A stretch of DNA of 64,000 bases. Origin: an uncultured bacterium (GTDB taxonomy: Bacteria > Armatimonadota > Abditibacteriia > Abditibacteriales > Abditibacteriaceae). Below the pieces are notes generated by a model. It saw nothing but the letters and a program-made list of their open reading frames with translations, had not been told where the DNA came from and made no database searches. Each line of letters starts with the position of its first letter. Position 1 is the stretch's first letter. The position numbers were made by a program, and so were the translations under genes. This document shows, in pieces, positions 1-63,821 of the stretch. The stretch lies in the NCBI GenBank assembly GCA_963843795.1, contig CAWJLW010000006.1, positions 1,736,001-1,800,000 of the forward strand, in the 5' to 3' direction.

Positions 1-994
1 TACGAGTGAGGACATGGCGTGGCTGTGGAATGCACGCGTGAATGGTGGCGGCAGTGCGCCACGTTCCAACGTGCGTTCGGGCACGATTCTACGCGCGATT
101 TGTGCGCGTTACGATGAGAATCGAGAAGAAGCTCAGCGCGTTTTGACCGGTTTGCGTTGGGGTTTAATTCCGCGTACAACGAGCGCAGACGATGTGCGCG
201 CGGGCCATCGATTGGTATGGGCGCGGCGTGAAACCTTAACGCAGCGCGCCTCGTTTCGCAATTCGTTGCGCGCGCGACGTTGCGTGGTTCCGGTCAATGG
301 CTGGTTCGCTCGTGTGCGCGAAAATTTTTCGGATGACGCTGCCATCGAGCATCATTTATGGCTGCGTCCGCGCGATGGGCGAATGTGGTCGCTGGCCGGT
401 TTGTGGGACGAATGGACGGACGAAAACGAACGCGTCCGACGCACCTGTGCTCTGGTTTCGACTGCGCCCAATGCGCGCCTGGAGCGTTTAGGCGTGCGGA
501 TGCCCGCGATTTTGGACGAAAACGCGGCGCGCGTCTGGTTAGACGGACGCGAACACGGCGGCAAGTACTTGCAGACCTTAGCAAGCACCATTTCTTCGCG
601 CGAATTAGACATTTCGGTGGTCGCGTCTCCGCGCTGGCGCGAGCAGGACGACGAAAGTTTGCTGGAAGCCGTGCCCGATTCGGACGAAATTATTCAACGT
701 TTGGGCTTGGCACGCGAGCGCAAAGTTCCCCAGATGAGGCGACAATTGCGGCGCGATTGGCATTCGCCAGATGGTCAGGTTTTCTTCAAAATGCGCTCTT
801 TAACGCGCGATGACGATACGCGCTGGCATCCGGTGGTTGACACCGGTGACGGCCGCGTGTTCTGCGATTGCCCCGATTTTCATTATCGCCACGCGCGCTT
901 TCGACCCGATGTGTGGATGCCGCAGCATTGGTGCAAACACGTCGAGCGCGCGGTCAATAATTGTGTAAAACACGGCGATTTGATTGCAGCTTAA
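1..994 (+). CDS. SRAP (SOS response-associated peptidase, YedK/HMCES-like) domain protein with C-terminal SWIM-type Zn finger; probably 5'-truncated by the window edge
   Basis: SRAP motifs RWGLIP, ARRET, RRCVVPVNG, LAGLWD and RMPAIL. C-terminal CDCPDF...WCKH matches SWIM CxC...CxH. The frame is open back to position 2 and the N-terminal MCGR-type start is not seen. Confidence 0.8.
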   Translation, partial: TSEDMAWLWNARVNGGGSAPRSNVRSGTILRAICARYDENREEAQRVLTGLRWGLIPRTTSADDVRAGHRLVWARRETLTQRASFRNSLRARRCVVPVNGWFARVRENFSDDAAIEHHLWLRPRDGRMWSLAGLWDEWTDENERVRRTCALVSTAPNARLERLGVRMPAILDENAARVWLDGREHGGKYLQTLASTISSRELDISVVASPRWREQDDESLLEAVPDSDEIIQRLGLARERKVPQMRRQLRRDWHSPDGQVFFKMRSLTRDDDTRWHPVVDTGDGRVFCDCPDFHYRHARFRPDVWMPQHWCKHVERAVNNCVKHGDLIAA

Positions 995-998
995 GGCG

Positions 999-1034
999 AA
1001 AAAGCATTGTGCAAGTACTTGCACAATGCTTTTT
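999..1034. terminator. Bidirectional terminator-like 36-bp perfect palindrome centred on the 12-mer
   Basis: AAAAAGCATTGTGCAAGTACTTGCACAATGCTTTTT, between convergent genes, with A/T tracts on both sides. Confidence 0.8.
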
Positions 1035-1121
1035 GACAGGCTGAATCGCTTAGCCATATCAAAATAGAGTTAAAGTCCACAAAACGTTTTCGAAGAAATA
1101 GTGCTAAGCAGCGTGAAATGA

Positions 1122-3261: not shown

Positions 3262-3293
3262 AAAGGCTTCTGCAAGTACTTGCAGAAGCCTTT
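3262..3293. terminator. Terminator-like hairpin centred on the 12-mer
   Basis: AAAGGCTTCTGCAAGTACTTGCAGAAGCCTTT directly downstream of the GH29 gene. Confidence 0.7.
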
Positions 3294-5430: not shown

Positions 5431-6309
5431 TCAAACCGAAGGCACTTTTTCCATGTTGGCATCACCAATAATCGCATCGCAAACACGCGCCACGTCGCGC
5501 ATCGCTTTCACATCGTGAACGCGCACGATTTGCGAACCGTTGGCAATCGCGAGGGCAACTGTGGCCGCCGTGCCCATCAAACGCTTTTCAACCGGTGCAT
5601 CATCGAGAATTTTGCCAATCGTCGATTTGCGGCTCGTCGCCGAAACCAGCGGACGACCGCACGCCAGAAGTTCGCGTCCGCGCGCGATGATGGCCAGGTT
5701 TTCTGCGACCGATTTACCAAAACCAAAGCCCGCATCCAAGGCAATGCGCTGGTTCTCAATGCCCGCTGCGCGTGCTGCATTTAATTGCTGGTTCCAGAAA
5801 TCGAGTATTTCCGCGATGACATCGGCGTGCGCGTTTTCAGACTGTTGGCTCCATTGCATGAATTGTGGCGTGCCGCGCAAGTGCATCAAAACCACGCCGC
5901 AAGTACTTGCAGAGAGCGTTTCCAGCATCTTGTCATCGAAAGTCGCGCCGGAAATGTCGTTGATAATATCCGCGCCCGCATTCAAAGCAGCATTCGCGAC
6001 CTGACTTTTCGTAGTGTCAATGGAAATTGCAATTTTTTCTGCGCCCGAATGCGCGCGCAAACGTTCGACAAGTGGCACGACGCGCGCGATTTCTTCTTCC
6101 AGCGAAACCGGCGTCGCTCCGGGTCGCGTGCTTTCGCCACCAATATCGAGAATGTCGGCGCCTTCGTCAATTTGTCGCAGCGCGTGGGTCAGGGCATTTT
6201 CGCGCGAACGCCCGTCGCCGGAAAACGAATCGGGCGCGGTATTAACGATGCCCATCACCAGCGTGCGCTGAGAAGTTTCAAAGCGAAAACGATTACAAAT
6301 CCATTGCAT
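5431..6309 (-). CDS. folP: Dihydropteroate synthase
   Basis: MGIVNTAPDSFS, DIGGESTRPG, INDIS, SRKS and IVRVHDV. Start set at MQWICN (6309). Confidence 0.95.
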   Translation of the reverse strand: MQWICNRFRFETSQRTLVMGIVNTAPDSFSGDGRSRENALTHALRQIDEGADILDIGGESTRPGATPVSLEEEIARVVPLVERLRAHSGAEKIAISIDTTKSQVANAALNAGADIINDISGATFDDKMLETLSASTCGVVLMHLRGTPQFMQWSQQSENAHADVIAEILDFWNQQLNAARAAGIENQRIALDAGFGFGKSVAENLAIIARGRELLACGRPLVSATSRKSTIGKILDDAPVEKRLMGTAATVALAIANGSQIVRVHDVKAMRDVARVCDAIIGDANMEKVPSV

Positions 6310-6344: not shown

Positions 6345-6380
6345 AAATTTCGCCGTGCAAGTACTTGCACGGCGAAATTT
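6345..6380. terminator. 36-bp perfect palindrome centred on the 12-mer
   Basis: AAATTTCGCCGTGCAAGTACTTGCACGGCGAAATTT between the TPR gene and folP. Confidence 0.6.
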
Positions 6381-7194: not shown

Positions 7195-7803
7195 TTAATC
7201 AAATTCGCTTTCGTATCGCCGCGCCAGTTCATAGGCCACAATGCCAAATGCCACGCTCACGTTCAGCGAATTTTTCAGTCCGCGCATCGGCAAATGCACC
7301 GTCGCATCGCAGCGCGCCATCACATCTTCGCTTAAACCTTCAGCCTCGTTTCCCATCACAATCGCGACCGGAAATTGCAAAGCGAAATTTTTCAACGGCA
7401 CACTATGTTCGCTCAGTTCGATGGCAAGTACTTGCATGCCATTTTCGCGCGCTTCTTCAATGGCATCAAAGACTGATTCGCTGTGTCGCCACGGCACGAC
7501 CTCAGTCGATTCCAAAGCTGTTTTATCCAGATGTTTATGTGGTGGCTGCGGCGTGTATTCGCATAAAACCAATTCGCCCAGATTCGCTCCATCGGCGGTG
7601 CGAAACATCGAACCGACGTTGTGCGCTGAACGAATACGATCCAAAATAGCGCAGATCGGCAAACGTGGCAACGCTTTGGCCTCTGCAAGCTCCATGCGGT
7701 CGCGCCCACATTCGTTGCGCACCCAGAACTGTTCTTGCAAACGCTTGTTCCAATGCGCGGGCGGGCCTTGTGAAGTTTGGGATAGAGGAAAATTTTCGCT
7801 CAT
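7195..7803 (-). CDS. SpoU/TrmH-family RNA 2'-O-methyltransferase
   Basis: HNVGSMFRTAD, VMGNEAEGL and SLNVSVA SPOUT motifs. Confidence 0.9.
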   Translation of the reverse strand: MSENFPLSQTSQGPPAHWNKRLQEQFWVRNECGRDRMELAEAKALPRLPICAILDRIRSAHNVGSMFRTADGANLGELVLCEYTPQPPHKHLDKTALESTEVVPWRHSESVFDAIEEARENGMQVLAIELSEHSVPLKNFALQFPVAIVMGNEAEGLSEDVMARCDATVHLPMRGLKNSLNVSVAFGIVAYELARRYESEFD

Positions 7804-7869: not shown

Positions 7870-7916
7870 TCCGCAAGCACTTGCAGTCTATTTTCGCACT
7901 GCAAGTACTTGCGGAC
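7870..7916. repeat. Inverted-repeat hairpin built from two copies of the palindrome (one variant), downstream of ftsH
   Basis: TCCGCAAGCACTTGCAGT...ACTGCAAGTACTTGCGGA. Confidence 0.7.
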
Positions 7917-10167: not shown

Positions 10168-11196
10168 TCAGTTCCTTAACTTTTGAAAACGCACGCGCCG
10201 TCCCGAATGAACACCTGTCCATTCAACACGCAAATCGCGCGTCCACATCCACACCGCGCGCCTGCCTTCCTCGACAATTTGCAAACGTGCCGTTTCAACT
10301 TTGTTCGCTTCGACACTTTCGCCAAACTCGCGCGCCGCCAATCGCAACACGCGTCGCGCCAGCGCTGTGCGCAGAAGCGCTAAGTTCGCCCCATCTAAAA
10401 CTAGCAAGTTTGTTTCACGAAGCAAAACCAAACTTTCCAGCTCGCGCGCTGCGATCTCATCCAGAAAATTTAAATCGTCGCCCAGCAGTTGCGCCGCACG
10501 CCGCGTTTGCCGCGCCAGTCGTCCGCGCGCGCTATTGGCATTCAACAAGTTTTCCATCAGTGGTATCAATTCATGCCGCACGCGATTGCGCAGGTACTTG
10601 CCGTCACGATTGCTACTATCTTCGCGCGTTGCCAAATCTAAAACAGCACAAATCGTTTCGCAATCCTTGCGCGCCAAATCTAAAATCGGACGCACTAATT
10701 CAAGCGACAGTGAATTTCCATCCAGCCAACGCCGATTCTCCATGCCGCGCAAACCACTAACCGCAGCCCCGCGCAGCCAGTGCAACAACACAGTTTCCAA
10801 TTGATCGCTCGCTGTGTGTCCGGTTGCGATACGCACACAATTCTGCTCGCGCGCGATCTCGGCCAACGCTTGATAACGCGCCTCGCGCGCCGCCATTTCA
10901 AACGATTGATTCGGACCGACAAGGACTTGCACCGCGCGCGCAACATATGGAATTTCCCATTTTGCACATATTTCGCGCACCCATTTTTCATCTTCATCGC
11001 TTTCCTTTCCGCGCGTTTGATGATTGATATGGCCGACGACCATTTCGCGCTCGCAATATTTCAAGATAGCCAGCAAAGCCAGCGAATCGGCGCCGCCACT
11101 GACCGCGACCAGCACGCGTTCAGATTTCGGCACACAGGTTTCGATGGCCTTTCGCGTGGCGTTCCAGATTGCGGGCGGCAGTGAAAATGGGGTCAT
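10168..11196 (-). CDS. tilS: tRNA(Ile)-lysidine synthase (short form)
   Basis: AVSGGADS PP-loop, HINHQTR, AREARY, TGHTASDQLET, EDSSN and RNRVRH. Lies upstream of ftsH. Confidence 0.93.
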   Translation of the reverse strand: MTPFSLPPAIWNATRKAIETCVPKSERVLVAVSGGADSLALLAILKYCEREMVVGHINHQTRGKESDEDEKWVREICAKWEIPYVARAVQVLVGPNQSFEMAAREARYQALAEIAREQNCVRIATGHTASDQLETVLLHWLRGAAVSGLRGMENRRWLDGNSLSLELVRPILDLARKDCETICAVLDLATREDSSNRDGKYLRNRVRHELIPLMENLLNANSARGRLARQTRRAAQLLGDDLNFLDEIAARELESLVLLRETNLLVLDGANLALLRTALARRVLRLAAREFGESVEANKVETARLQIVEEGRRAVWMWTRDLRVEWTGVHSGRRVRFQKLRN

Positions 11197-11427
11197 GCAA
11201 GTACTTGCAGCGTTGTTTAAGTCGCGAAAACCAACCCAAATGTACCATCGGAAACGCCGCCGCCGATCAAAAACACATGGACTCTTTACCGCCATTGAGC
11301 ATCCTCGATCTCAAATCGCTACTGCCCGACCCGATACCAATGGCAATTAGTGATAACGCCATTTAATGAATTCCGCTGGATGAAATCGTCGATCAAAACG
11401 AAAGCGCGCACCCAAAAAGCCAAATTG

Positions 11428-12309: not shown

Positions 12310-12364
12310 ATTCCGTCAGTGTAGCCGCGCACTTTAGGTGCGCTGCAAGTACTTGCAACTAAAT

Positions 12365-12604: not shown

Positions 12605-12643
12605 TTCGCCTCCTGCAAGTACTTGCACTTCTTATTGTAGCTT

Positions 12644-14326: not shown

Positions 14327-14458
14327 TTTTCGTTACCTTTGGTGATCGGAGGAAAAGACGAGGGCACAGTGCCGAGAAAATCTCACTGCAAGTACTTGCC
14401 TCTCGAATAAAAGCCACGCATATGTCTTTTCTTCTCGTCTCTTTCGTTCTATCAATTC

Positions 14459-16285: not shown

Positions 16286-16429
16286 ATTTCACTGTCCATT
16301 TTTGGCGTTAAAAGAGGTCCAAAGCGCACTAAATCGTGTTTGCAAACAAACACAACCTAACAAGAACTCGACAATTGTGCAACGAAAGCGGCTCAAAGCG
16401 CGCTGCAAGTACTTGCAGCGCGTTGCAAT

Positions 16430-19153
16430 TCACAAAATGCTCATACAATCCACATCGACAATCAAACCATCGCGTTCATCTCGCGCCAGTTCATCATACG
16501 CTTGTAGCACACGATGCAGACGCGGTCGGCTGCGGTCGCGCAGCAAAAGATGAAAACGATATTTGCCTTTTACGCGCGCAATCGGGCAACTGACCGGCCC
16601 CAAAAGTTCCGTCGCGCCGCCAGCCTTCATGATTTTGGCTTGAAAACGCGCCGCTAACCGGCTTAAACGTTCGCGCGCGACTTGTTCGTTTTCGTCTTGC
16701 GAAAGCACGTTCACTACATACGACCACGGCGGATATGGCAACTCGCGGCGTTGGGCCAATTCCTGCTCGACGAAACTCGCGTAATCGTGATTTTGCGCCG
16801 TCGTAATCGCGTAATGATCTAGAGACAACGTTTGCACTAAAACGCGCCCCGGCTGCTCGCCGCGTCCGGCGCGTCCGGCGACTTGCGACAACAATTGAAA
16901 CGTCCGCTCTGCAGCGCGAAAATCGGGCACGTTTAGCGCGGTATCGGCGGAAATTACGCCGACCAAAGTGACGTTGGGAAAATCCAACCCTTTAGTCACC
17001 ATCTGCGTACCGATGAGCACCTGCGCGCGACCTTTTCGAAACTGTGCCAAGATTTGCGCGTGCGCGCCTTTGCCGCTGGTTGTGTCGCGATCCATACGAA
17101 GTACTTGCACATGTTCCAAACCGCGCTGCGAAAGCAAACTTTCGATTTCGTTTTGCACTTTTTCCGTGCCGCTGCCGCTGAAATTCATCATCGTGCCTGC
17201 GCACTGCGGACATTCGTGCACAACAAGCTTTTCGTAGTCGCAATGATGACATTTCAACAGTTGCGCGCCTCGGTGAAACGTCAAGCTCACATCGCAATTG
17301 GGGCACTGTTCGACGTGACCGCAACCCAAGCATTGAACATAAGTTGCGAAACCGCGCCGGTTGAGAAAGATAATCGCTTGCTCGCCGCGTCCAATAGTTT
17401 CGACCAACGCGTCCTGTAAACGCTGACTGAGAACCGGCAAAGTGCCGCCCTGCGCTTCTTGGGTCATATCGACAATTTCGATTTTGGGCAAAGGGCGCTC
17501 GGCGAAACGCTGGCGCAAATACAGATGGCCATATTCGCCTTTGGTGGCGCGCTGAAAACTTTCCAAAGAAGGCGTTGCCGAACCCAAAACGACCACGCCA
17601 TTTTCCCAACCCGAGCGTTTGGCGGCCACATCGCGCGCGTGATAACGCGGCGTGGCGTCCTGTTTATAAGAGCCATCGTGCTCTTCGTCGATGATAATCA
17701 AACCGACGTTCTGACAAGGAGCAAAAATTGCCGAGCGCGCGCCGACGACAATATCGGCTTCGCCCGAACGAATGCGCCGCCATTCATCAAAACGCTCGCC
17801 TGCGCCGAGTGCGGAATGCAAAATCGCAACTTTTTCTTGAAATCGACGCTGAAAAATCTCGACAGTCTGTGCGGTGAGGGCGATTTCCGGCACCAAAACT
17901 AAAGCGCGCCGCCCCAAGGCCAAACATTTTTCGATGGCGTGCAAATAAACCTCGGTTTTTCCACTCGCCGTCACACCCTGCAACAAAATAATTTCGGAAT
18001 TTTGCTCGCCTTGCGAAGCCGAAACGCGCGCCATCGCCGCGCCAATTTCAGCCACCGCATGAGTTTGCTCGGTGTTCAGTTCGATGCGCCCCCGATCGCT
18101 GGGCGGCAACCGTGTATAACTGGCGCGCGTTTGTTCGATGCTATCGATGCGCACCAAATTTTTCTTTTCCAGCGCGCGCAAAATCGCGCTGTCAATCTTC
18201 CATTCTTTTTGCAAAGCTGCCATTGGGAACCATTCCGGCGCGCCATCTTGATCCGAGAGTTCGCGCAACTGTTGCAAAGCGGCATCTTGTTTGGGGGCGT
18301 TGCGCGTCAATTTCTCGGCTTCTTCATGGCAAGTCTTTGCAACGGCTTCTGCAAGTACTTGCACCGCCAAAACGCGGCGCGGACGCACGTTTGGATTGGC
18401 CAAATGATCTTCGCTTTCGACAATTTCGGCTCTGATAAGCGCACGCAACGCGTTGGCAATGGCGGGCAATTTCAGCGTTGAACTTTCACCAGTCGCTTTT
18501 TCGCGTTTTTGCAGTTGCTTCAAAATATCTTTCTGCGAAAGCGAGGCCTCGCTATTGAGCAACAGTTGCACAATTTGCGCTTGGCGTGGTGAACGCGATA
18601 AATCGCGCAACACGCGCATGGCATCAGGCGCGCACACGAAATATTTGCGCTCGGACGCCACTTGCCAGCCGCCAGGCACCATACCACCCAGACACTCGCC
18701 CAACGAGCAGTGATAATACGCGCTCATCCAGCGCGCCAAACGCAGCGCGGTGCGGTCAAAAACTGGAGCGCTGCCGGTTGTTTGAACAATGGGGCGCAGT
18801 TGAGATGGCTCGCAATCAACGCATTCATCCAGCAATTCAATGACATAACCAGTGATTTGCTGTGCACCAAACGGTACGATGACAGCCATTCCCGGAACGA
18901 CAGCGGCACGCAGTTCATCGGGAATCGCGTAAGTGAGTTCGCGGCCCAAAGCCGATTGGCTGCGGTCGAAAGCGACCACCGCATACGGAGGCTGCCAATC
19001 TCGCGAACTGCGTGGCGAGGAAGCGGCAGCAGGGAAATGTGGTGAAGTTCTGGGAAAAATTGGTTGGGTATTTTCGCGTGCGGCGCGGCGAAAAACGGGG
19101 CGGCGCGGGGCCGAATCACGCGACATAACTGACCTAATTATAACATTTTGCAT
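16430..19153 (-). CDS. priA: Primosomal protein N' helicase
   Basis: GVTASGKTEVY, DEEH, SATP, four CxxC pairs, GTQMVTKGLDFP and QVAGRAGR. Start uncertain. Confidence 0.97.
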   Translation of the reverse strand: MQNVIIRSVMSRDSAPRRPVFRRAARENTQPIFPRTSPHFPAAASSPRSSRDWQPPYAVVAFDRSQSALGRELTYAIPDELRAAVVPGMAVIVPFGAQQITGYVIELLDECVDCEPSQLRPIVQTTGSAPVFDRTALRLARWMSAYYHCSLGECLGGMVPGGWQVASERKYFVCAPDAMRVLRDLSRSPRQAQIVQLLLNSEASLSQKDILKQLQKREKATGESSTLKLPAIANALRALIRAEIVESEDHLANPNVRPRRVLAVQVLAEAVAKTCHEEAEKLTRNAPKQDAALQQLRELSDQDGAPEWFPMAALQKEWKIDSAILRALEKKNLVRIDSIEQTRASYTRLPPSDRGRIELNTEQTHAVAEIGAAMARVSASQGEQNSEIILLQGVTASGKTEVYLHAIEKCLALGRRALVLVPEIALTAQTVEIFQRRFQEKVAILHSALGAGERFDEWRRIRSGEADIVVGARSAIFAPCQNVGLIIIDEEHDGSYKQDATPRYHARDVAAKRSGWENGVVVLGSATPSLESFQRATKGEYGHLYLRQRFAERPLPKIEIVDMTQEAQGGTLPVLSQRLQDALVETIGRGEQAIIFLNRRGFATYVQCLGCGHVEQCPNCDVSLTFHRGAQLLKCHHCDYEKLVVHECPQCAGTMMNFSGSGTEKVQNEIESLLSQRGLEHVQVLRMDRDTTSGKGAHAQILAQFRKGRAQVLIGTQMVTKGLDFPNVTLVGVISADTALNVPDFRAAERTFQLLSQVAGRAGRGEQPGRVLVQTLSLDHYAITTAQNHDYASFVEQELAQRRELPYPPWSYVVNVLSQDENEQVARERLSRLAARFQAKIMKAGGATELLGPVSCPIARVKGKYRFHLLLRDRSRPRLHRVLQAYDELARDERDGLIVDVDCMSIL

Positions 19154-20435: not shown

Positions 20436-21209
20436 TTACACAGCGCGCCGGTTGCCCCACAACAAAACATGCAACTGCGGTAGCAATAAAACATTCAGCC
20501 AACCATCTCGCGTCACATATTCTAGTAGCCATTCGATTTCACGGGTAGGTGCCGTCGCAAAATTCGCGCCGACTTCAAAGGCAGAAGGCCAATTTTCTGG
20601 CTGTTCGGGCGAAAAGTTACCGACTTGCAAAACCCAACGCACATTGGGAAACCGCGTGTGCAGCAACTCGTACCCTGCGCGCGCGAATTGATAATCGGTT
20701 TCATCGAAAACCACAATTTTTATGGCAATATCGCTGCAAATGCCAGCAGCGATATTGTCACGATTTTGCGCGGCTTCGATACATTCGATCACACGCGCCC
20801 AATCGCAATGCATTTTCGAAGAGGGCGGTTTGGGCGATAAAACCAGATGATCCAATTTCGCAAACCAGTTCTTCGACACACTGCCCTGGGTTTCCAGCGC
20901 GAAAGTGCAACCCTTTTCGCGTCCCAAATCGAGCAACGATTCCAACGGTTGCAAAGCCGGATTACCACCCGAAAGCGTGATAAGAATCGGTTGTTGATGG
21001 GTGAGTGCAAGTACTTGCTCCAGAATTTCTGGCGCGCTCATTTTCTGCCAGTCGTTCTTGAATTGTGGTAAAACGGCATAGAGCGTGTCGCACCAGGCGC
21101 AGCGAAAATCGCAGCCACCGGTACGCACGAACACAGTTGGACGGCCGATAAGCGTGCCTTCGCCCTGAATTGTTGGCCCGAAAATTTCGCTGATTTGAAT
21201 CAATCGCAT
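20436..21209 (-). CDS. queE: 7-carboxy-7-deazaguanine synthase (radical SAM)
   Basis: EIFGPTIQGEG, CDFRCAWCDT, SGGNP, SPKPPSS and PQLH. Confidence 0.95.
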   Translation of the reverse strand: MRLIQISEIFGPTIQGEGTLIGRPTVFVRTGGCDFRCAWCDTLYAVLPQFKNDWQKMSAPEILEQVLALTHQQPILITLSGGNPALQPLESLLDLGREKGCTFALETQGSVSKNWFAKLDHLVLSPKPPSSKMHCDWARVIECIEAAQNRDNIAAGICSDIAIKIVVFDETDYQFARAGYELLHTRFPNVRWVLQVGNFSPEQPENWPSAFEVGANFATAPTREIEWLLEYVTRDGWLNVLLLPQLHVLLWGNRRAV

Positions 21210-21242
21210 CTCAGTAGTGGTGCTGCAAGTACTTGCAGCGCG

Positions 21243-23324: not shown

Positions 23325-23392
23325 TCTTTAATTTTTTCAATGACCAAGCCACTTAATTTTAGCAAAAACGCCCCGCAAGTACTTGCAGAGCA

Positions 23393-24655: not shown

Positions 24656-24818
24656 AGGGGAAATCCGCTGCAAGTTTAGTATCTCCGACGCCCAGCGCGG
24701 AAACTGGAGCGCGTTTTTCGGTGCAAGTACTTGCCTGAAGTATACTTGCATACGGGGGCGTGAGTGTGTTTATCTCAACCTATTCCGTTTCCACATATTC
24801 TGATTTAAAGGTCATTTA

Positions 24819-25671: not shown

Positions 25672-25703
25672 AAACTGGCCTGCAAGTACTTGCAGACCAG
25701 TTT
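25672..25703 (+). terminator. Terminator-like hairpin centred on the palindrome
   Basis: AAACTGGCCTGCAAGTACTTGCAGACCAGTTT after the epimerase stop codon. Confidence 0.65.
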
Positions 25704-41332: not shown

Positions 41333-42241
41333 TTATTCGCTTTCAAACGGCAATTTCACGACGGTGGCGGTTGCGCGCTGCCCGTTCGCAAGTACTTGCA
41401 GCGTAGTACCGGGCGCCGCCCAATCGCTACGCACATATGCCAGCGCAATCGTGCCCAAAACGGGCGAATCGACACACGAAGTCATCATTCCCACATTGCG
41501 TTCTTCGCATTGCAAAAGGGCGTTTTGCCACGTTTCAGCGCTAGCGTCCTCGATTTTCAGACCACTCAAACGCTGCTTGATTTTTTGATAAGTGTTCAAA
41601 CGCGCCACGATTTCCTGACCGTTGTAACATCCTTTGTGCAACGAAATCGAACTGTTCAAACCAGCTTCCCACGGATTAAATTCTTCGCTGATTTCCGCAC
41701 CTGCAATCGGCAAACCCGCTTCGACGCGCAAAACATTATAAGTTGGCCCATCGATTTCGCTTCCGCGCTGATATTCCCTTAAAACGCTTTCGTTTGCACT
41801 CCACAACCACCAGCCGCCAAACGGCCAGCGTGCGTTGTAAAAACCCTGAATTTTCGTAAAATCGGGTTTAATGGTTTGTGATTGGGGGCCGAAAAGCGCG
41901 ATGGCCCGTGTGCTATCGCTGAGATCGTCAATTTTCACGTCTTGCCCGAACAGAATAAATTTGCGTACGTGCGGCGCGAACATTTCACGACGGTTCGGAG
42001 AAGTCCACACGAGGTAGCCGTTTTCGTCGCGCATTACAGAAAGCCAATCCAGCAAACGGCCTTTGGCCGTAATCAAAGCGGCGTTGCACTGTTCGCCAAC
42101 TTTAAGTTTCTTGATGTCGTTGGTTGTGAGATGGTGCAAAAGCGCACCGGCATCGCGACCGCTGAGGTGAAAGCGACCGAAATGCGAGATGTCGCGCCAC
42201 GCGATATGGGCGCGCGCGCTTTGATAAGCGGAAAGGTTCAT
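41333..42241 (-). CDS. ygfZ: Folate-binding YgfZ/GcvT-like protein
   Basis: LRVEAGLP and the KGCYNGQE signature. Start set at MNLSAY (42241). Confidence 0.88.
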   Translation of the reverse strand: MNLSAYQSARAHIAWRDISHFGRFHLSGRDAGALLHHLTTNDIKKLKVGEQCNAALITAKGRLLDWLSVMRDENGYLVWTSPNRREMFAPHVRKFILFGQDVKIDDLSDSTRAIALFGPQSQTIKPDFTKIQGFYNARWPFGGWWLWSANESVLREYQRGSEIDGPTYNVLRVEAGLPIAGAEISEEFNPWEAGLNSSISLHKGCYNGQEIVARLNTYQKIKQRLSGLKIEDASAETWQNALLQCEERNVGMMTSCVDSPVLGTIALAYVRSDWAAPGTTLQVLANGQRATATVVKLPFESE

Positions 42242-42249: not shown

Positions 42250-43938
42250 TTACAGCGGCAAAACTAAGGGCGCCAAAGTCGCTGCCATCGTTAAAGTTTG
42301 CGCCGCTTGCAGCAAAATCAAAAGGGTCACGGCAGCCACTAACGCCCGAGCCGCACCTCGCGTGCCCTGCGGCAACAGCACGCTCGCGGCCAGAACGCAA
42401 AATGGCGGCAGCGCAAACATCCACAAACGCTCGGTCTCGCCACGCACACTGCCCATCAGGGTAATCAAGGTCAAAGCGCCCAACATCGCCAGCGCCAGTT
42501 GCAACGTGCGCCAATTTTGTTCGCCGCGCAATCGCCACAACGCGCAAGCGCACGCCGCGACAACCGGCCAGCCGCAGAAGACCGCAAAAATCGGCCCATT
42601 AAACCATAACCAACCACTGCGACTGCGCGTTTCGAGTGTTGCCAGATGATGGGCAGCCATCGCTTTTTGCCACACGAGCGGCACATCGAGCGGAAACATC
42701 AGCCAGATTAAGAACCACATCGCAACAAAACCGCCGCCAACCCACAACAACGCACGCCAGTTTTTCTGCGCGACAAACCACAAAAAACCGACCGCGCCGA
42801 TGACAAGTGCGCCCAGTGAAACCCACGTCGTCAACGCCCATAGCGCGCCCGCCAAAACGAGCCAGTTTTCGGGCTGCAAGTACTTGCGAGAATCCGAAAG
42901 CGAAAATGTGGCTCGCAAGTACTTGCAACACAGCGCAATCGTCCAAGCGATGCCACACGCAACAAGTGCATCCAAGGTGGGCGCGAACAAGCCGACTGTA
43001 GGCGCTAGAACCCACAGCGCAGCCGCGCACAAACCGCGCGCTTCGTCTAGTCGTTTTTCGTCGTCGCAAGTACTTGCAACGCTACAATCGCGCGCCAGAA
43101 TGAACACAGCGGGCACGCTCAAAGCCAGCGCGCTGACTAAACCAATAGCGGCCAGCGCTGCGGTCGCCAATGCGGAAACAGGTAATGGCAAAGCGGCAGC
43201 ATCAGATGGTGCCGCGCCCGCCGAGCGCGCGCCCGCCGTACGAAACGCGTTGAAATCGTTCGTCAGCTGGGTGCGATTATCACCCGCCGCTGCCTCGACG
43301 CCACGGATTAAAAAGCTTTGCAGCGCAGGCGCGCTTTCGACGGCGCGCCGACAAGCATAGTAAAAAAGCGTCGCACCGGGCGGGTGAGTGGCGACATGAG
43401 CGATGGCAGGCGCGGTCGGGTTTTGAGATTGTGTGGCGTAATGGCGCGAAAAGTCGCGCGCGTTATCAATCTGGTAAGCCGCGCCCAGATACTGAGTCGA
43501 TATATCGCTGAATTGAGACGCGACGACATTATAAGCGCCACTGCGCACGCCCTCGATTCCGCTCGATGGGCCGAGCAAACTCCAATGCCATAACACTGAC
43601 ATTAGCATCAGCGCGCCCACACTCATGCGCCGCGAAGTGCGTTGTTCTTTATAGGTTTTAGCACGCCGAAAACGGTCGTAAGCTGAAACTGCAGAAAGGC
43701 CGCCGAAAATGCAAAATACGCCGAGAGGCAGCCACCATGCACCGATATTCCACGGTGCGTGAGGTGAGAGCAACCAGCCATCGCGTCCCCAACCGCCGCG
43801 CGTTCGCAGCAGCCAGTTCGCGGTAATCGCGCTCATAATTAGCGACAAAGCGACGGCTAAAATCGCGCGATAACTGGCGAACTTCGCGGTAGTTACTTGG
43901 GCATTGGCGCTTTCCATCTGCGCGTTTTCTATTGCCAT
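42250..43938 (-). CDS. Polytopic membrane protein, possible GT-C-fold glycosyltransferase
   Basis: More than 10 TM segments, THPPG motif in a large early loop and ETERLW motif. Confidence 0.6.
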   Translation of the reverse strand: MAIENAQMESANAQVTTAKFASYRAILAVALSLIMSAITANWLLRTRGGWGRDGWLLSPHAPWNIGAWWLPLGVFCIFGGLSAVSAYDRFRRAKTYKEQRTSRRMSVGALMLMSVLWHWSLLGPSSGIEGVRSGAYNVVASQFSDISTQYLGAAYQIDNARDFSRHYATQSQNPTAPAIAHVATHPPGATLFYYACRRAVESAPALQSFLIRGVEAAAGDNRTQLTNDFNAFRTAGARSAGAAPSDAAALPLPVSALATAALAAIGLVSALALSVPAVFILARDCSVASTCDDEKRLDEARGLCAAALWVLAPTVGLFAPTLDALVACGIAWTIALCCKYLRATFSLSDSRKYLQPENWLVLAGALWALTTWVSLGALVIGAVGFLWFVAQKNWRALLWVGGGFVAMWFLIWLMFPLDVPLVWQKAMAAHHLATLETRSRSGWLWFNGPIFAVFCGWPVVAACACALWRLRGEQNWRTLQLALAMLGALTLITLMGSVRGETERLWMFALPPFCVLAASVLLPQGTRGAARALVAAVTLLILLQAAQTLTMAATLAPLVLPL

Positions 43939-45302: not shown

Positions 45303-45399
45303 AGCTTCCAGTATCGGCTGCCACGCGCCACGTTGCGAGTTTTCGGGTTTGAAAGAAGATGAAATTTGGCGCTGCAAGTACTTGCAGCGCCAGCTTGGC

Positions 45400-46815: not shown

Positions 46816-47486
46816 TGCGCGCGCTCCTCCGTGTCGCCTTTAGCAAGTACTTGCACCGCGTCGTTCTCGGCAAGGGGCGTGTTCTCGGCAAGGGGCGTGT
46901 TCTCGACGAAAGTATTTTCACCCGGCGCACTCATCGCACCGCGATTGAACAAATTCGAAGCGCGCGCTTCCTGATGCAAGGCGTTCCATTCTTCCAACGA
47001 AGGCAAATCATCGACAGCGCGCAACCCAAAATTTTCCAAAAACAAGGGTGTTGTCGCATAAAGCCACGGACGGCCCGGCGCATCTCTGCGACCGGCGAAG
47101 GTGAGCAACTTTTTTTCTAAGAGCCATTGCAGTGGCCCCGCGCAATCGACGCCGCGCAACTCCTCAATCGTCGCGCGCGTTGCGGGTTGGCGATAAGCGA
47201 CAATGGCCAAAACTTCAAACGCCGCGCGCGACAACTTCTGGCGCGGCACATCGCGCAAACGGCGAATGTGCGCGGCAAATTGCGGCTTGGTGACCAATTG
47301 CCAACCTTCGGCAATTTCGACGAGTTGCAGCGCGCCAATGCGCGATTTTTCGTCCTGCAAAATTGCCAATTCTTCACGCGCCAGTTCCTCACTTAACTCG
47401 GCGGCGCTGGCAATTTTTTCGATAGATAAGGGTTGATCGGCAGCGAACAATAGCGCTTCGATCACATCGGCACCACTTGGATTCAT
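46812..47486 (-). CDS. scpB: SMC-Scp complex subunit ScpB
   Basis: IEALLF, LS.AA.EVLAIVAYRQP, IEELRGV, PGRP..Y.TT and FGL..DLP. Confidence 0.96.
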   Translation of the reverse strand: MNPSGADVIEALLFAADQPLSIEKIASAAELSEELAREELAILQDEKSRIGALQLVEIAEGWQLVTKPQFAAHIRRLRDVPRQKLSRAAFEVLAIVAYRQPATRATIEELRGVDCAGPLQWLLEKKLLTFAGRRDAPGRPWLYATTPLFLENFGLRAVDDLPSLEEWNALHQEARASNLFNRGAMSAPGENTFVENTPLAENTPLAENDAVQVLAKGDTEERAQ

Positions 47487-49117: not shown

Positions 49118-49165
49118 AATTTCGTCTCAATTGCGCTTCAAGGTCACTGCAAGTACTTGCAGCGC

Positions 49166-50506: not shown

Positions 50507-50883
50507 TGCTGAAATTTAGAATTTGCGCTGCGAAATAGTTCCGTCAGTGTAGCAGTGCGGCAAATTCGGAACAGAAACCACGAAAGCCAGCGCGAAAATC
50601 AGGGCGAATTACAGCAATGAGCAATTTATTATGCCGGCAAGTACTTGCTGAATACCGAGCGCGTTCTGCTTAACGTTGGTCTTATTTTAACTGCGTACTG
50701 CGCCATTAACCCTGCTTTTCTCATTGATGTCCGAATATATTGCATGCTTCTGGATAAATAATTCGGCGTTTGTGGGCGCAGGTTTTGCCTTAACAGAAAA
50801 CCGCTATTAAAAATATGAAAATAGCCAGAAAAGATTAATGTACAGATTGAAGTCGCATCAGTTAGTCAAGTGAGTTGAACGCC

Positions 50884-51711: not shown

Positions 51712-51747
51712 CAAAAACGCCCTGCAAGTACTTGCAGGGCGTTTTTG
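51712..51747 (+). terminator. 36-bp perfect palindrome terminator centred on the 12-mer
   Basis: CAAAAACGCCCTGCAAGTACTTGCAGGGCGTTTTTG. Confidence 0.78.
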
Positions 51748-54800: not shown

Positions 54801-54984
54801 TGCTTACGGCGGCTACGAGTTAGCGAAATCGGTCGTGGAAGGTATCAAAACTCGGGTTCCCGCACTCGGCAAGTACTTGCAAGATGATGTCAAGCCGTTC
54901 GATCCGGCGCATCCCGATGCGGCCAACGATTTCCATCTGCCCACCAGCGCATTAACACCCAGTACGAAACCTGACGGAAGTTAA
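51874..54984 (+). CDS. Secreted rhamnogalacturonan lyase (PL11, YesW/YesX-like) fused to a linker domain and a CE12 rhamnogalacturonan acetylesterase
   Basis: RQMESLGRGVVA, NIREGAHYTQF, RGYYTR, GQGNH and WQNVGYNQPPH. C-terminal SGNH motifs GDSTV, QFGHND and DDTH. Confidence 0.9.
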   Translation: MSLRNLMRALLICAAMLLSWIPVRAQRQMESLGRGVVAIKRDDGKIFVSWRLLATDPQNLAFNLYRVAEGATTKLNTQPITGATNFIDGNAILEQMNAYFVRPISNGKEQAPSASFVIPAKSAARPYLSLPLRTPDGYAPNDASVGDLDGDGEYEIVLHQAGRGKDNSQSGITDPPILQAYKLDGTLLWTINLGHNIREGAHYTQFMVYDLDGDGRAEIVCKTADGTTDGKGSIIGDAKANYVSEKGYILSGPEYLTVFNGLTGAALATTNYIPSRMPDDPTNLKPTSDQIKKVWGDGYGNRPDRFLACIAYLDGVHPSVVMSRGYYTRTFLAAWDFRGGKITSRWVFDSNTPGNEKYAGQGNHNLSVADVDGDGKDEIIYGAMALDDNGKGLYSTELGHGDAIHLSDLDPKRPGLEVFRIQEPYADAGMHMFDAKTGEILWKIPPGKAGGDGEGPGRGLALDIDPRHEGFECWGAGAQMFGKVFDAKGNLIDTNGKAPPVNMGVYWDGDLLSETLDGTTIGKWDWLNNQTNALLDAKQFDCVSNNGTKANPCLSADILGDWREEVIWRTADNKELRIFTTTEPTQHRFVTFMHDPEYRLSIAWQNVGYNQPPHTSFYIGPNMKNPPQIVITTAPKSSFHFAFDPAAEQTGATLVTSGTTYSTQTGYGFENATDKNQLPKYFSVALPEGNYQVTLRMGAEKTPTDTTVKAEARRLMLEGVRTAPGEFVESSFAVNVRTPRLAAGGEVRLKARETGVRHWDDKLTLEFNGARPGVQSLSIVPLENAVTVYLAGDSTVTDQPEEPWSSWGQMLPRFFNAQVAVANYAESGETLNSFRSARRQEKILENIKAGDYLFIQFGHNDQKDKAPGAGPFTSYKANLKQFVEAARAKNALPVLVTPMERRRFEGDKPTTTLADFAEAVRQVGSEEKVPVIDLNGMSLKFYAALGPEGSKAAFVHYAANTFPGQDKALRDDTHFNAYGGYELAKSVVEGIKTRVPALGKYLQDDVKPFDPAHPDAANDFHLPTSALTPSTKPDGS

Positions 54985-55923: not shown

Positions 55924-55967
55924 GATTAAGTCCTACGCTGCAAGTACTTGCAGCGTAGGACTTAATC
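55924..55967. repeat. 44-bp perfect palindrome centred on the 12-mer (longest perfect one seen)
   Basis: GATTAAGTCCTACGCTGCAAGTACTTGCAGCGTAGGACTTAATC, 10 nt after the CE12 stop codon. Confidence 0.9.
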
Positions 55968-58218: not shown

Positions 58219-58254
58219 CAAAAGGCCGGGGCAAGTACTTGCCTCGGCCTTTTG
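58219..58254. terminator. Bidirectional terminator hairpin centred on the palindrome
   Basis: CAAAAGGCCGGGGCAAGTACTTGCCTCGGCCTTTTG between convergent genes. Confidence 0.8.
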
Positions 58255-60590: not shown

Positions 60591-63188
60591 TTACGATTGG
60601 GAACGAGCGTTCGGGTTGAGATTGATAATCAAGACATGATGCGGATCAGAAGCGTCGCCAAAAACGCGCGACTGCGGATAAATCGCTGCCAGCCTCTCGA
60701 CATCGACGCCGTATTCCTGACGTTCCAGTTCGCCGACAACCACATAATCAATATCGTAAGCTTTTGAAATCATGTCGCGCTCGTTTTGGCTGGGCGTTGT
60801 ATAAAAGCGACGCGCATCGGCTTTGCGGCGCGCGACTTCGACCCACATCTGATCGTTATCTTGTTTATCGTGTCCCCATTGAAAAGTATGCGCCGAAGGG
60901 CCGATAATGGTGGGAATTCCGGTCGCGTGAGCGTAGCGCGCAAAGTTGGAATAATCACCGCCCGCTTGCTGCTCGGCTTCGAGTAAAGTGTCGCCGTCAT
61001 GGGCGCGCTCTTGCAACCATTGTGCGGCCTCCTGTTCGGGCGCCGCGAGATGCGCCCACGCGTCCGGCGTTTTCCAGATGCTCTGCCCCGCCGCGCGCAG
61101 TTCCTCGTTGAAGTTGCGCGTGCGACCTTGCAAACACGACCACGAAGCCAGCGCCATCACGCAAAACGCCAGTGCATAACTCAGTTGAACCGGAAACCAC
61201 CAGCGCCGCCACAACGGTTTGTCTAAGCCGTCGCAAGTACTTGCAGGCTCATTTTCCGCATTTTCACGCTGGCAAGTACTTGCAGCCAACAACGCAGCGC
61301 AGGCCGCCGCGATACCGATGAGATACCAGCCTTGCAAACCGAATTTAAAAACCGTGTCCTGACGATGATAAGTCGGGCCACTCGGCGCGGGCACCAAAAA
61401 ACCGGCCCACGTCAATTCGCTCCACATCAACGCCACGAAACCGCAAGTCGCCATGCGACACAAAAGCGAAAAGTGCGGACGCGAAGTGGTAAAAACCGCG
61501 CGCAGCGAAGCGATACCCAAAGTCGCGACTAAAATCGGCACGCTGTAATCGCCATTTTGATACACAACCGGCAAATCGCTCGGCAGCGCGCGCGGCCACG
61601 TCCATCGCCATGACCATTGCGGACCAAACTTTAAAATTCCCCACACCAAAAGCGGCAGTAAAAGCCAGCGCCAACTTCGCCAATCGCGCCCGCTCTGACG
61701 CGCATCGTCCCACAAAGCAAGGCTCCACGCACTCACGATGACGCCCCACATCAGCAACCACGCCAAAAGTGGCGTCGCTGGCAAACTCAGCGGCGATGGC
61801 GAATGCGCATTGGTGTGCAAGCGCAGCAAATACAAGACGGAAAACAGCAGCATCGAAACTGTTAAGAGCGGCCAAGTGACGGCGAACGAACGCCGGTCGA
61901 GTTCGATGACTTCGGGCGTTTGCTGCACAATACGACCCGCTTTTTTATCGGCTTTTTCGGCTTTTTTGCGCGCCGTTTTCGATAGCGTCGGCGCTTCTTC
62001 ACCGGCAAGTACTTGCAGCGCGTTGTGGCGCGATGGCCACAAGCACAAGCTCAAAAACAGCCAGTACGCGGGCACGTCCCAGGTGTTGGTAATCACGAGC
62101 GCAGCCATAACTACGCCTGCCAGCCACACGCGCCATGAAAGTGCGCGCGCCAGCCTAAGGGCAAGTCGTTGCCGCGTCGATTTTTCGCTTTTGGGCACTT
62201 CTTCAAGTGAAATTGTGCGTGGCTGCATTTGCGCGAACAACGCCCAACCCAGCGATAAAATCAGCAAGCAAACCGGAACTGCGAAATAGTGCGCGTGTAA
62301 ATCGGCGTAGGTAAAAGTGAAAAACGGAAATTCGTTGATGGTGTAATTAATGCCGCTACTGTCGCTAATCGGGTTGGGAATCACGCGCGAAGTCGAGAAG
62401 TAATCGAGCGGAAGTTCGCCAAACGGCCAGTGGCGCAAACCATTGACATCGGTTTCGATCCATTGGCGCAGCGGTTCCAACGTGCCCAGAATCAAAACCA
62501 GAAACGCCGCCACAGCGCCGCGCCGCAAGCGTCCGGTAATCGCACCGGCCAACGACATCAGCAGCGTGAAGCACAGCGCGGGCAGCGTCGCGGCCATCAA
62601 ATTGTAAGTCCAGCGAATTGGCGCAGAAATCGCGTCGCTGAGTAAAGCGGTCTGCAAATGGCCCAGATAATAGTAACCGCCCAGCCGCGCGCCCGCGAGG
62701 TAAGGATTGGGCGGAGGTAAATGATCGGCGCGCGCGCAGGCACCAATCAGCGCGATATCCATCGGTTTTTCGCCATTGTCAAAATCGGGCCACAAACACC
62801 GCAGCGCGAAGAAGATCGCGAAAATTAGCAAAAAAGTCACGTCAATGGCGACGATGGCGCGCAGATGGCGACGCAATTGGGCCAGCAACTCGTTTTTTTC
62901 GCACTTCCAGCGCCACAGGGAAAGCGCGGCCAAGAAAATCAGAATGATAGGCGCGAGGCGGACAGGCAAGCCGGCGTTTCCGGCCCAGAACGCACCCAGC
63001 GTCCACAGGGTCAGTAACAAAACGCGACCACACATCCAGCCACCGTCGGGCAAAGTTCCCAGCGTGCTGTCGGCAGAGCGCGCCATCCACAAACGCGCCG
63101 AGAAAGGAAAGGCGATGGGAGCCAGTAGCCACAACAAAAGCAACCAGGAAACGAAAACCGGAATCGGCATAAATGGGGAGCGGCGCAA
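60591..63188 (-). CDS. DUF2298 / Chlor_Arch_YYY (TIGR03662)-like membrane protein
   Basis: GEKPMD, GYYYLGH, TSRVIP, INEFPFFTF...DLHAH, NTWD, DTVFKF and YVVVGELER..YG. Confidence 0.85.
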   Translation of the reverse strand: MRRSPFMPIPVFVSWLLLLWLLAPIAFPFSARLWMARSADSTLGTLPDGGWMCGRVLLLTLWTLGAFWAGNAGLPVRLAPIILIFLAALSLWRWKCEKNELLAQLRRHLRAIVAIDVTFLLIFAIFFALRCLWPDFDNGEKPMDIALIGACARADHLPPPNPYLAGARLGGYYYLGHLQTALLSDAISAPIRWTYNLMAATLPALCFTLLMSLAGAITGRLRRGAVAAFLVLILGTLEPLRQWIETDVNGLRHWPFGELPLDYFSTSRVIPNPISDSSGINYTINEFPFFTFTYADLHAHYFAVPVCLLILSLGWALFAQMQPRTISLEEVPKSEKSTRQRLALRLARALSWRVWLAGVVMAALVITNTWDVPAYWLFLSLCLWPSRHNALQVLAGEEAPTLSKTARKKAEKADKKAGRIVQQTPEVIELDRRSFAVTWPLLTVSMLLFSVLYLLRLHTNAHSPSPLSLPATPLLAWLLMWGVIVSAWSLALWDDARQSGRDWRSWRWLLLPLLVWGILKFGPQWSWRWTWPRALPSDLPVVYQNGDYSVPILVATLGIASLRAVFTTSRPHFSLLCRMATCGFVALMWSELTWAGFLVPAPSGPTYHRQDTVFKFGLQGWYLIGIAAACAALLAASTCQRENAENEPASTCDGLDKPLWRRWWFPVQLSYALAFCVMALASWSCLQGRTRNFNEELRAAGQSIWKTPDAWAHLAAPEQEAAQWLQERAHDGDTLLEAEQQAGGDYSNFARYAHATGIPTIIGPSAHTFQWGHDKQDNDQMWVEVARRKADARRFYTTPSQNERDMISKAYDIDYVVVGELERQEYGVDVERLAAIYPQSRVFGDASDPHHVLIINLNPNARSQS

Positions 63189-63326
63189 TCGTAATTTTTG
63201 CGAAATTCGTTCAAATGTCGGTGTGGAACGCGGGAAACGCCCCGCAAGTACTTGCAGGGCGCTTTGGTTGCTATTTCAAACAACGCGTGCGATCAGAATC
63301 GCGCTTATTTTACCAAAACAGTTCCT

Positions 63327-63749
63327 ATGAAGAATTTTCAACTGCTCCCATTTTTGCGTCGCTTGTCTGCTACCGTCTTTATTTTTGCTGGAATTTTCAA
63401 GCTCGGCCTGCTCATTTTTAGTCTTGTTTCACCGTCGCGTTTGCCTTCGTTCACCGCATTATTAGCGACATTGAACGTACCATTTCCCCAAATTTTCGCA
63501 TTCACAGTGCCGCTACTCGAAATCATCGGCGGCGCGCAATTGTGGCGCAAACAACAAGTGCGAATATGGGCGGCGTTGCTAGCGTGCGATATGAGCGTGG
63601 CGATTGCCCTAGTTGGAATTCCCGCGAAATTCGGGCGCGCGCCGAAAATGGGCGCGCTGAGCGTTGGCGGTGAAAGCTGGCGTTTGCCACTGGAAATTGG
63701 CTTGTTGCTGATGTGCTTGTTTCTCGCGCTGCGCAAAAATGCCAAATGA
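63327..63749 (+). CDS. DoxX-family membrane protein
   Basis: R......FIFAG..K and P.P........EIIGG, with four TM segments. Start set at ATG 63327. Confidence 0.75.
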   Translation: MKNFQLLPFLRRLSATVFIFAGIFKLGLLIFSLVSPSRLPSFTALLATLNVPFPQIFAFTVPLLEIIGGAQLWRKQQVRIWAALLACDMSVAIALVGIPAKFGRAPKMGALSVGGESWRLPLEIGLLLMCLFLALRKNAK

Positions 63750-63821
63750 TAATGATGGAGTGCAAGTACTTGCACCACGCTTTATAGCCAAAACTGAGCG
63801 CGCGATTTAAACTCGCGCGTT

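Follow-up and report, generated by a model that had tools for sequence, protein, structure and literature searches.

The 64,000-nucleotide stretch of DNA analysed here (the window; positions 1,736,001 to 1,800,000 of contig CAWJLW010000006.1, GenBank assembly GCA_963843795.1), from an uncultured bacterium of the Abditibacteriaceae, carries 43 exact copies of the perfect palindrome GCAAGTACTTGC, to which all copy numbers for this genome refer. The 12-mer is iterated throughout the 4.30-Mb assembly (G000), in which the window sits within a 3.6-Mb contig. With slightly better than even confidence, we regard it as a self-DNA uptake signal for natural transformation, i.e., a symmetric palindrome resembling the DNA uptake sequences (DUS) and uptake signal sequences (USS) of other bacteria, which would have a probably methylated core and be spread by molecular drive. 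This reading is built at the level of sequence, from abundance, dialects in relatives, origin by substitution, protein recoding, spacing, phased flanks, absence from islands rich in insertion sequences (IS) or restriction-modification (RM) genes, competence genes and gene co-occurrence. Uptake signals have been described for two proteobacterial families, next to the methylation-linked motifs RAATTY and highly iterated palindrome 1 (HIP1), the function of the latter having remained open for three decades. The palindrome and its dialects look like a further, undescribed way of recognising and taking up the DNA of one's own kind.

Copy number, origin and surroundings of the 12-mer

The 43 copies counted in a preliminary description of the window were all recovered (positions 561 to 63773), and none occurred in 100 dinucleotide shuffles of the window. 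Independent gene calls gave the same division into 26 intergenic and 17 coding copies, the reported flank preference reappeared as CT-motif-AG, and the noted lack of transposases agrees with a scan of 50 open reading frames (ORFs), none of which matched a transposase family; Rfam likewise gave no match in the window. The genome-wide Markov count proposed there yielded 2,567 copies across all 11 contigs, compared with 0.1–7.4 expected from models of order 2–5 on the motif-masked genome, which excludes an enrichment confined to a single contig. Density amounts to 629 per Mb on the 3.6-Mb contig, 74–562 per Mb on the small contigs and 597 per Mb overall. Our own gene caller (3,547 genes, 86% coding, with starts that may be trimmed) places 1,788 copies between genes and 754 within them, with 21 more running across a gene end. 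Since near-miss sites are few (506 with one and 371 with two mismatches), recognition appears strict and to require both halves.

Coding copies use the three reading frames unequally (494/145/115) and have left a trace in the proteome. The tripeptide QVL is 2.6-fold over-represented, with 553 of its 937 occurrences (59%) encoded by the motif compared with 0.4% expected, and QVLA, ASTC and KYLQ are enriched 15-, 33- and 21-fold, whereas reversed controls remained below 1 for the tripeptide and at 0.2–0.8 for the longer peptides. When 24 coding sites were aligned to motif-free relatives, 17 were gap-free within 30 nt; residue identity was 0.26 at the sites and 0.63 overall (n = 24), which marks them as poorly conserved positions. 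The core had stayed in place in 7 of 14 comparisons with metagenome relatives, 3 of 7 with G001, 2 of 13 with genomes carrying GAGTACTC and 0 of 24 with motif-free genomes, and some aligned sites hold another species' dialect at the same place. The mostly gap-free alignments, low site identity and partial retention of the core therefore suggest that most copies originate through substitutions where the sequence tolerates them, and that they turn over.

These alignments also bear on the idea that the copies are remnants of small mobile or repetitive extragenic palindromic (REP)-like elements, or a favoured terminator hairpin, which is largely refuted as the primary cause and in our view improbable. 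Gaps within 30 nt at the other 7 of the 24 coding sites, above the 8% background, would fit insertion, and 658 of the 1,788 intergenic copies form palindromes with an extension of 4 bp or more, a T-run accompanying 532. However, 754 copies lie in frame in genes, most coding sites align without indels, at times with a different dialect in place, no element body is common to the flanks, and spacers are occupied similarly between divergent (50%) and convergent genes (63%). Extensions of at least 8 bp are commonest between convergent genes (62%), and use as terminator is therefore regarded as secondary. REP elements and miniature inverted-repeat transposable elements were also set aside as a class, as the shared body of 20–100 bp, the insertion origin and the near-exclusive intergenic location expected of them were not found; no search was aimed at the REP-associated tyrosine transposase (PF01797). 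Thirteen head-to-tail doubles with a spacing of 12 occur in contig C6 of G000 (e.g., at 373245, 806237 and 2705917), most of them within perfect hairpins, which suggests local duplication by template switching.

An assembly or adapter artefact, for its part, is refuted and of practically no weight. Although the assembly does contain indel errors, with 32 of 255 orthologous loci looking broken, the codon-frame bias, the recoded proteome, the dialects in separate genomes and a related dialect at 28 metagenome loci from relatives all speak against it, as does one copy found without differences in a short-read contig, whose run may, however, be the source sample.

Beyond the CT/AG preference, the flanks had been described as unrelated. 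This proved wrong, since phased AA/TT tracts extend to about 50 bp and many intergenic copies form the apex of longer hairpins. The consensus in G000 reads AAAA-(GC-rich, 5–6 bp)-motif-(GC-rich)-TTTT, and isolated copies are flanked by AA/TT peaks at positions 8–9, 19–20, 29–30, 40–41 and, weakly, 50–51, on both sides and alike in coding and intergenic copies. Relative to controls matched for the first tract, turns 2–5 reached z = 14, 8.5, 5.3 and 2.6 around coding and 15, 7.6, 7.5 and 2.2 around intergenic copies. Pairs of copies 18–70 bp apart lie in helical phase (n = 100, Rayleigh p = 5e-11), while more distant pairs are not phased. The phased flanks imply that about 100 bp would be bent symmetrically around whatever reads the palindrome.

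Along the chromosome the 12-mer is uniform (47–83 per 100 kb outside the first and end bins), and switches in GC skew leave its density unchanged at 55–65 sites per 100 kb nearby, without an ori/ter pattern. A crude test of the distances between copies gave a flat curve between 2 and 100 kb, the published periodicity fitting for HIP1 being a different procedure. Below 1 kb pairs are depleted (891 vs. about 1,450), coding copies avoid intergenic copies within 750 bp, and spacing is more even than expected, with a coefficient of variation of 0.77 vs. 0.85 ± 0.013, next to a slight excess of coding copies near one another. The two largest gaps, of about 26 kb each, correspond to an IS-rich island (G000:C6, 56–82 kb) and a low-GC island with type I RM and ArdC-like genes (518–543 kb), both motif-free, and the 16S gene carries no copy. 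Contig C4, phage-like in look, has about 40% of the chromosomal density.

A bending reader could also be a cytoplasmic chromosome protein, i.e., a dimer such as a nucleoid organiser or topoisomerase loader, around which about 100 bp would be wrapped at sites spaced evenly by selection on chromosome structure, an explanation we consider unlikely but far from negligible. The strict palindrome with its dyad-symmetric AA/TT phasing and the helical phase of close pairs are consistent with it, although compatibility of the flanks alone could give the latter. Periodic flanks are found around strong gyrase sites, and phasing is likewise a feature of nucleosome-like wrapping. In addition, the core equals that of the SlmA binding site (SBS) GTGAGTACTCAC, which has about 50 copies and is excluded from Ter (PMC3020112). 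Against such a protein stand the lacking ori/ter pattern and the flat pair correlation in the crude test, the absence of histone-fold matches in five of five genomes, the absence of such a motif from samples of 4–105 kb of 17 of 27 relatives, the asymmetric sister motifs and the link to an RM pair (both below), which it leaves unexplained. For the earlier suggestion of a binding site for a nucleoid-organising or repair protein, the phased flanks imply bending on a protein, but an ori/ter pattern is missing. Macrodomain and partition sites (SBS, matS, parS, Noc-binding sites) were rejected, as tens of ori/ter-restricted sites would be expected in place of uniform ones unchanged at skew switches; so were polar signals such as Chi and the FtsK-orienting KOPS, which are non-palindromic and oriented by replichore, whereas the 12-mer is a palindrome and its asymmetric sister motifs show no strand bias in 20-kb samples.

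Dialects, probable methylation and GTAC loss in the family

Dialects built around AGTACT/GTAC occur in 7 of 27 family genomes and an unrelated asymmetric motif in three more, while the exact 12-mer reaches 0–3 copies in every one of 40 relatives searched; in the other 17 family genomes no comparable motif was seen in the 4–105 kb examined of each. AAGTACTT counts 2,965 in G000 and 2,725 in G001 (there as CAAAGTACTTTG) vs. 0–90 in others, and GAGTACTC 4,077 in G012, 3,681 in G009, 3,172 in G015 and 2,650 in G019 (mostly TCGAGTACTCGA) vs. 0–68. G006 carries the asymmetric TCGACCGTAC (1,508 forward, 1,473 reverse), single or in fixed inverted pairs; at loci L041 and L042, genes contain the unit TTCGACCGTACT singly, and spacers hold it as a fixed palindrome of 24 bp centred on GAATTC/GAAATC. 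Proteins related to those of G000 are encoded at 28 of 33 metagenome loci, which carry NCAAGTACTTGN. The same flank phase (modulo 10.5, some 5 bp from the dyad) was also seen around the motifs of G001, G009/15/19 and G012 and in the metagenome relatives, with turns 1 and 2 showing it best; for G006 the phasing is weak (n = 26 singles). Across the phylum, enrichment of RAGTACTY was seen in Abditibacteriaceae alone (5 of 261 genomes sampled, G001 lying outside the sample); in the families f11 and f34 it is nearly absent (0–22 vs. 9–255 for controls), which marks further GTAC-avoiding lineages.

The asymmetric motif CAGCCACG, without GTAC, is found at 2,676–3,503 copies in G007, G016 and G018 (members of group g2). 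Samples of 20 kb revealed no strand bias, inverted pairs were seen mostly in G016, and AA/TT tracts are phased only 3' of the motif (amplitude 0.054 vs. a null maximum of 0.026, n = 285). By analogy with the one-sided AT-tract anatomy of USS (PMC12616744, PMC7811141), we take it to be a USS-like signal in its own right. Two dialects of it, GACACCAGCCACGTCCT and GCAGCCACG(G/C)CG, were seen in these genomes (L066, L251–L270).

Some further occurrences were discounted. Six loci of a viral collection, with one 12-mer each, were taken as chance, and motif clusters in G012:C48 and in contigs of G017 were first read as a dialect, those of AAGTACTT being local and imported-looking. Local runs of foreign dialect (AAAGTACTTTG-like or TCGACCGTAC) in G012:C48 (L018, 13.5–20 kb), G017:C26/C30/C50 and G000:C2 possibly represent imported DNA or mis-binned contigs. 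Locus L119 (1–5083) holds 10 AGTACT sites in 5 kb, five of them perfect, and is denser than the chromosome; judged by eye, its contig is phage- or satellite-like with tape-measure-, primase- and DnaB-like ORFs.

Methylation-directed repair around the core had been a third early suggestion. What speaks for it is an orphan methyltransferase, with GTAC as its likely target, in all seven genomes with a GTAC-core motif; by itself, however, it leaves the strict 12-bp palindrome with 100-bp phased flanks unexplained. G000 encodes a single N6/N4 methyltransferase, compared with 2–12 in relatives, and one type I M subunit. This sole type II-like enzyme is of the beta class (DPPY) and an orphan. The enzyme is present in 21 of 27 family genomes and is retained in 7 of 7 genomes with a GTAC motif vs. 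2 of 7 other nuclease-free genomes; for these and the following co-occurrence counts no significance is claimed, as kin are not independent. Its best annotated relatives (M.RsrI and YhdJ-like, about 35% identity or below) do not allow a target to be named. EVE domains occur in all five genomes tested and do not discriminate, and the m6A-reading C-terminal domain of DpnI is absent from G000, G009 and G006.

Convergent to the methyltransferase gene, both outside the phylum and in G017, G003 and G020, lies that of a 215-aa protein, whose structure model (predicted local distance difference test score of 92) falls among PD-(D/E)xK nucleases in a fold search (NhoI, MutH, DpnI and PvuII at Z 5.6–6.3; Z 5–6.3 overall, which implies no specificity). 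This nuclease-like partner occurs in 13 of 27 family genomes, namely in 0 of 7 with a GTAC-core motif and 13 of 20 others, with only a C-terminal remnant beside the methyltransferase in G015. A hydrophobic, signal-peptide-like N-terminus (by hydropathy, not by a predictor) is present in 10 of the 13 genomes, the protein of G020 having no leader and those of G008 and G014 being broken in the assembly; outside the family it was found in 0 of 120 closest and 22 of 150 more diverse homologues. The loci (L155:8078–8761, L160:4613–5344 and L271–L278; G017, G003, G011, G041, G005, G042, G018, G013, G024 and G022) appear to encode intact catalytic residues, and the gene lies near pilT in G008, G011 and G014. 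No methyltransferase was detected beside the nuclease in G013, and that of G022 contains stops.

Of all 4-mers, GTAC sets nuclease-bearing and nuclease-free genomes apart most sharply, at a mean log difference of −1.82 compared with −0.50 for the runner-up. Whole-genome ratios of GGTACG to control, worked out by hand, are at most 0.03 in 11 of 13 nuclease genomes (0.05 in G017, 0.13 in G003) and at least 0.08 in 12 of 14 nuclease-free ones. The exceptions, G007 and G016, are sisters of the nuclease-bearing G018, and G025, from outside the family, is also low (0.04) with no nuclease detected. GTAC is near-absent genome-wide in G005 (6 GGTACG vs. 3,836 control), G008, G011, G014, G013, G022, G024 and G042; many genomes of the family are very poor in CTAG, too. 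From depletion and co-occurrence we infer that the methyltransferase/nuclease pair targets GTAC and that the core of the motif is probably methylated. As another candidate GTAC enzyme, a PabI-family glycosylase was found in 0 of 31 genomes, with a control that was silent too. In a tree of three pilus ATPase genes from 23 genomes, several rows of which hold one gene only and which leaves out G011, G020, G022, G024 and G041, the motif-bearing g1 adjoins the nuclease-bearing g5 (99) and G012 adjoins G017 (92), while deep nodes are weak (28–33).

A methylated core would also suit a HIP1-like intracellular signal, in which methyl marks guide mismatch repair or recombination of DNA that has already entered, as in Elhai's model or at a Chi-like hotspot, so that sites are created and kept without any uptake bias; we rate this as unlikely, a shade below the chromosome protein. 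It would account for a palindrome of comparable density, HIPs being reported at 500–2500 per Mb (PMC4390886), for dialects that extend a methyltransferase-sized core, for the methyltransferase retained in 7 of 7 genomes and for sites that repel each other. Yet the 3,811 other GTAC sites of G000 are not enriched (observed/expected 0.66), and a 4-bp methyl mark alone therefore cannot select 12 bp plus a 100-bp phased flank. Moreover, searches of G000 and G001 revealed no C5 methyltransferase, GTAC is missing from the g2 motif, and G016 lacks the beta-class methyltransferase. Causes other than uptake, a chromosome protein or a HIP-like signal are together given little room.

Proposed self-DNA uptake and comparison with known systems

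The preferred reading remains self-DNA uptake, which among the roles first suggested now appears to fit best, whereas the pilT gene in the window, noted earlier as consistent with competence, is no evidence, as it is present in 31 of 31 genomes of the class. In the mechanism we propose, a reader with two-fold symmetry, part of the type IV pilus/ComEA path, would bind the palindrome in extracellular DNA and bend about 100 bp around it, of which the phased AA/TT tracts would be a record. Fragments with a site would be imported and recombined more often, so that chance point mutations towards the motif would spread by molecular drive until a site stands every 1.6 kb or so, mostly between genes or at codons that tolerate it, some being lengthened into terminator hairpins where useful. 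The retained orphan methyltransferase would methylate the core, as with HIP1 and Campylobacter RAATTY, and drift of reader specificity among lineages would give rise to the dialects. G000 encodes ComEA, ComEC, DprA, several secretins, PilB, two PilT, PilC, PilD and pilins.

It is the combination of traits reported for DUS and USS (dialects, peptides, spacing, terminators and AT flanks) that leads us to prefer uptake. Like the 12-mer, both known signals number in the thousands, have dialects within a family around a conserved core and enrich tripeptides (PMC7811141, PMC3630211, PMC2817400). They also resemble it in lying at poorly conserved residues, in being evenly spaced and depleted from recently acquired DNA and from rRNA, and in having been co-opted as terminators. 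USS have AT-rich flanks, too, and a dyad arrangement is known from overlapped DUS pairs in Simonsiella and Kingella (PMC12616744, PMC3630211). Palindromic, methylated HIP1 and RAATTY are described as promoting uptake and transformation (10.1101/2024.09.10.611283); given these and the dyad DUS, being a palindrome is no objection to a role as uptake signal.

Several points weigh against uptake. Competence genes are equally present in motif-free relatives, and pil operon content is alike in motif-bearing and motif-free genomes (21 loci). In the assembly, frameshifts interrupt the pil operon of G000; the extra bases are missing at the same places from short-read contigs, a single low-depth one in each case, of a run that may be the source sample. 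Minor pilins of the operon are not basic and show no motif-linked feature, and a screen of 425 secreted proteins gave no clear receptor candidate, the ComP family itself not having been searched. Half-sites are barely enriched in G000, and the symmetric recognition this requires would be unusual for a pilin. With 4–5 phased turns per side, the flanks exceed the two AT tracts of USS in length, and 70% of copies are intergenic. A homologue of the nuclease was detected neither in G000 (three profiles) nor in five motif genomes, the methyltransferase target is derived from depletion among genomes that are not independent, and the asymmetric g2 motif need not share the mechanism. As a receptor, a diverged nuclease was considered and rejected, the one weak match being the short C-terminal remnant of G015. 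Two genes are worth recording in this context: a small membrane protein without Pfam match (window 36019–36495) is conserved immediately upstream of pilT in most of the family loci inspected, and a predicted lipoprotein with an HNH-like motif, seen by eye (G000:C6, 895975–896631), is a possible periplasmic nuclease.

We do not file the motif as a DUS or USS, because its sequence type differs and its link to a receptor and to uptake is drawn from sequence. It further differs from them in phylum, in being a perfect palindrome that needs both halves (the dyad DUS being a precedent for arrangement only), in flanks phased on both sides, in its patchy occurrence within a family next to unrelated motifs, in its tie to an RM pair and in that no ComP/ComN-like receptor was found within the above scope. 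The view that it is an actively maintained, chromosome-wide signal distinct in sequence from HIP1, DUS, USS, matS and parS is supported. Indeed, the motif is neither HIP1 nor an SBS-type site. With HIP1 and alternate HIPs it shares the palindrome, similar density, lineage-specific palindromic extensions, a probable association with an orphan methyltransferase and coding copies (PMC4390886, PMC5861425), but its core is GTAC and not CGATCG/GATC as in GCGATCGC, and its host belongs to the Abditibacteriaceae and not the cyanobacteria (PMC4390886, PMC5861425, 10.1101/2024.09.10.611283). It is also 12 bp long, strongly intergenic and has phased flanks, no C5 methyltransferase accompanies it, and a periodicity of 10–90 kb was not seen in the crude test. 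Campylobacter RAATTY with CtsM is likewise a palindromic self tag with an orphan adenine methyltransferase (10.1101/2024.09.10.611283); here, in contrast, the over-represented word is far longer than the presumed 4-bp methylation site and about 25 times sparser. The SBS is also a 12-bp palindrome with the same AGTACT centre, but its outer bases differ and its few copies contrast with 2,567 uniform ones (PMC3020112). In Helicobacter pylori, the GTAC-directed HpyAXII RM system limits DNA uptake, as stated in a title among the references of PMC12378983, which parallels the GTAC-free relatives; the nuclease here, however, has a PD-(D/E)xK fold and a signal-peptide-like leader, and the PabI family gave no match beside its silent control. 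The over-representation of USS/DUS tripeptides in proteins has likewise been documented (PMC2817400). A literature search, which covered few subscription journals, returned nothing on the 12-mer, on uptake sequences from Abditibacteriaceae or on export of a GTAC nuclease.

More tentatively, and with clearly lower confidence than for uptake itself, the family could switch among three modes of discriminating self from foreign DNA in transformation, all based on one GTAC RM pair. In the first, an exported signal-peptide nuclease would destroy incoming GTAC DNA, and negative drive would purge GTAC from the genome; in the second, the nuclease would be lost and the methyltransferase kept, with a dimeric reader of the methylated GTAC palindrome that bends about 100 bp driving thousands of copies in; in the third, an unrelated USS-like signal would evolve on a GTAC-purged background. 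If true, uptake signals would gain a new family, a restriction enzyme would have been domesticated in the periplasm, and sister lineages would have changed modes repeatedly; a signal-peptide restriction enzyme gating incoming DNA would also be a new use of RM genes. One family here holds palindromic dialects, an asymmetric USS-like motif, and motif-free and GTAC-purged genomes side by side, contrasts that make origin, drift and loss of signals and the link to methylation directly comparable. The motifs could also predict the route of transformation and mark contigs and mobile elements in metagenomes.

Individual sites in the window

Two copies form the apex of long perfect palindromes, one of 36 bp between convergent genes with T-runs outside (999–1034, copy 1011–1022, arm +12) and one of 44 bp (55924–55967, copy 55940–55951, arm +16). 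Intergenic hairpins with a T-run surround the copies at 3272–3283 (3262–3293, arm +10) and 51724–51735 (51712–51747, arm +12), and further intergenic hairpins lie at 6345–6380 (copy 6357–6368, arm +12; neighbouring gene start uncertain), 16399–16422 (copy 16405–16416, arm +6) and 45367–45392 (copy 45374–45385, arm +7). Imperfect hairpins were seen at the intergenic copy 31348–31359 and the convergent intergenic copies 37721–37732 (with a T-run) and 58231–58242, whereas divergent genes stand on either side of 24723–24734 (by gene calls) and 50637–50648.

Further intergenic copies are located at 7901–7912, 12345–12356, 12615–12626, 14388–14399, 21225–21236, 23375–23386, 25682–25693, 28970–28981, 33102–33113, 49149–49160, 63762–63773 and 36518–36529, the last just upstream of the pilT-type ATPase gene (36613–37686, + strand), which is context only. 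The copies at 63244–63255 and 11197–11208 are intergenic by gene calls, the latter falling within the ORF 10168–11295 if an upstream ATG is used. Coding copies occupy 561–572 (SRAP gene), 5899–5910, 7424–7435, 18351–18362 (priA), 21007–21018, 35308–35319, 40374–40385, 41014–41025, 41388–41399, 43066–43077, 46843–46854 (scpB), 54869–54880 and 62005–62016, next to two coding pairs with copies 39 bp apart, at 61233–61283 (61233 and 61272) and, in helical phase, at 42876–42926 (42876 and 42915).

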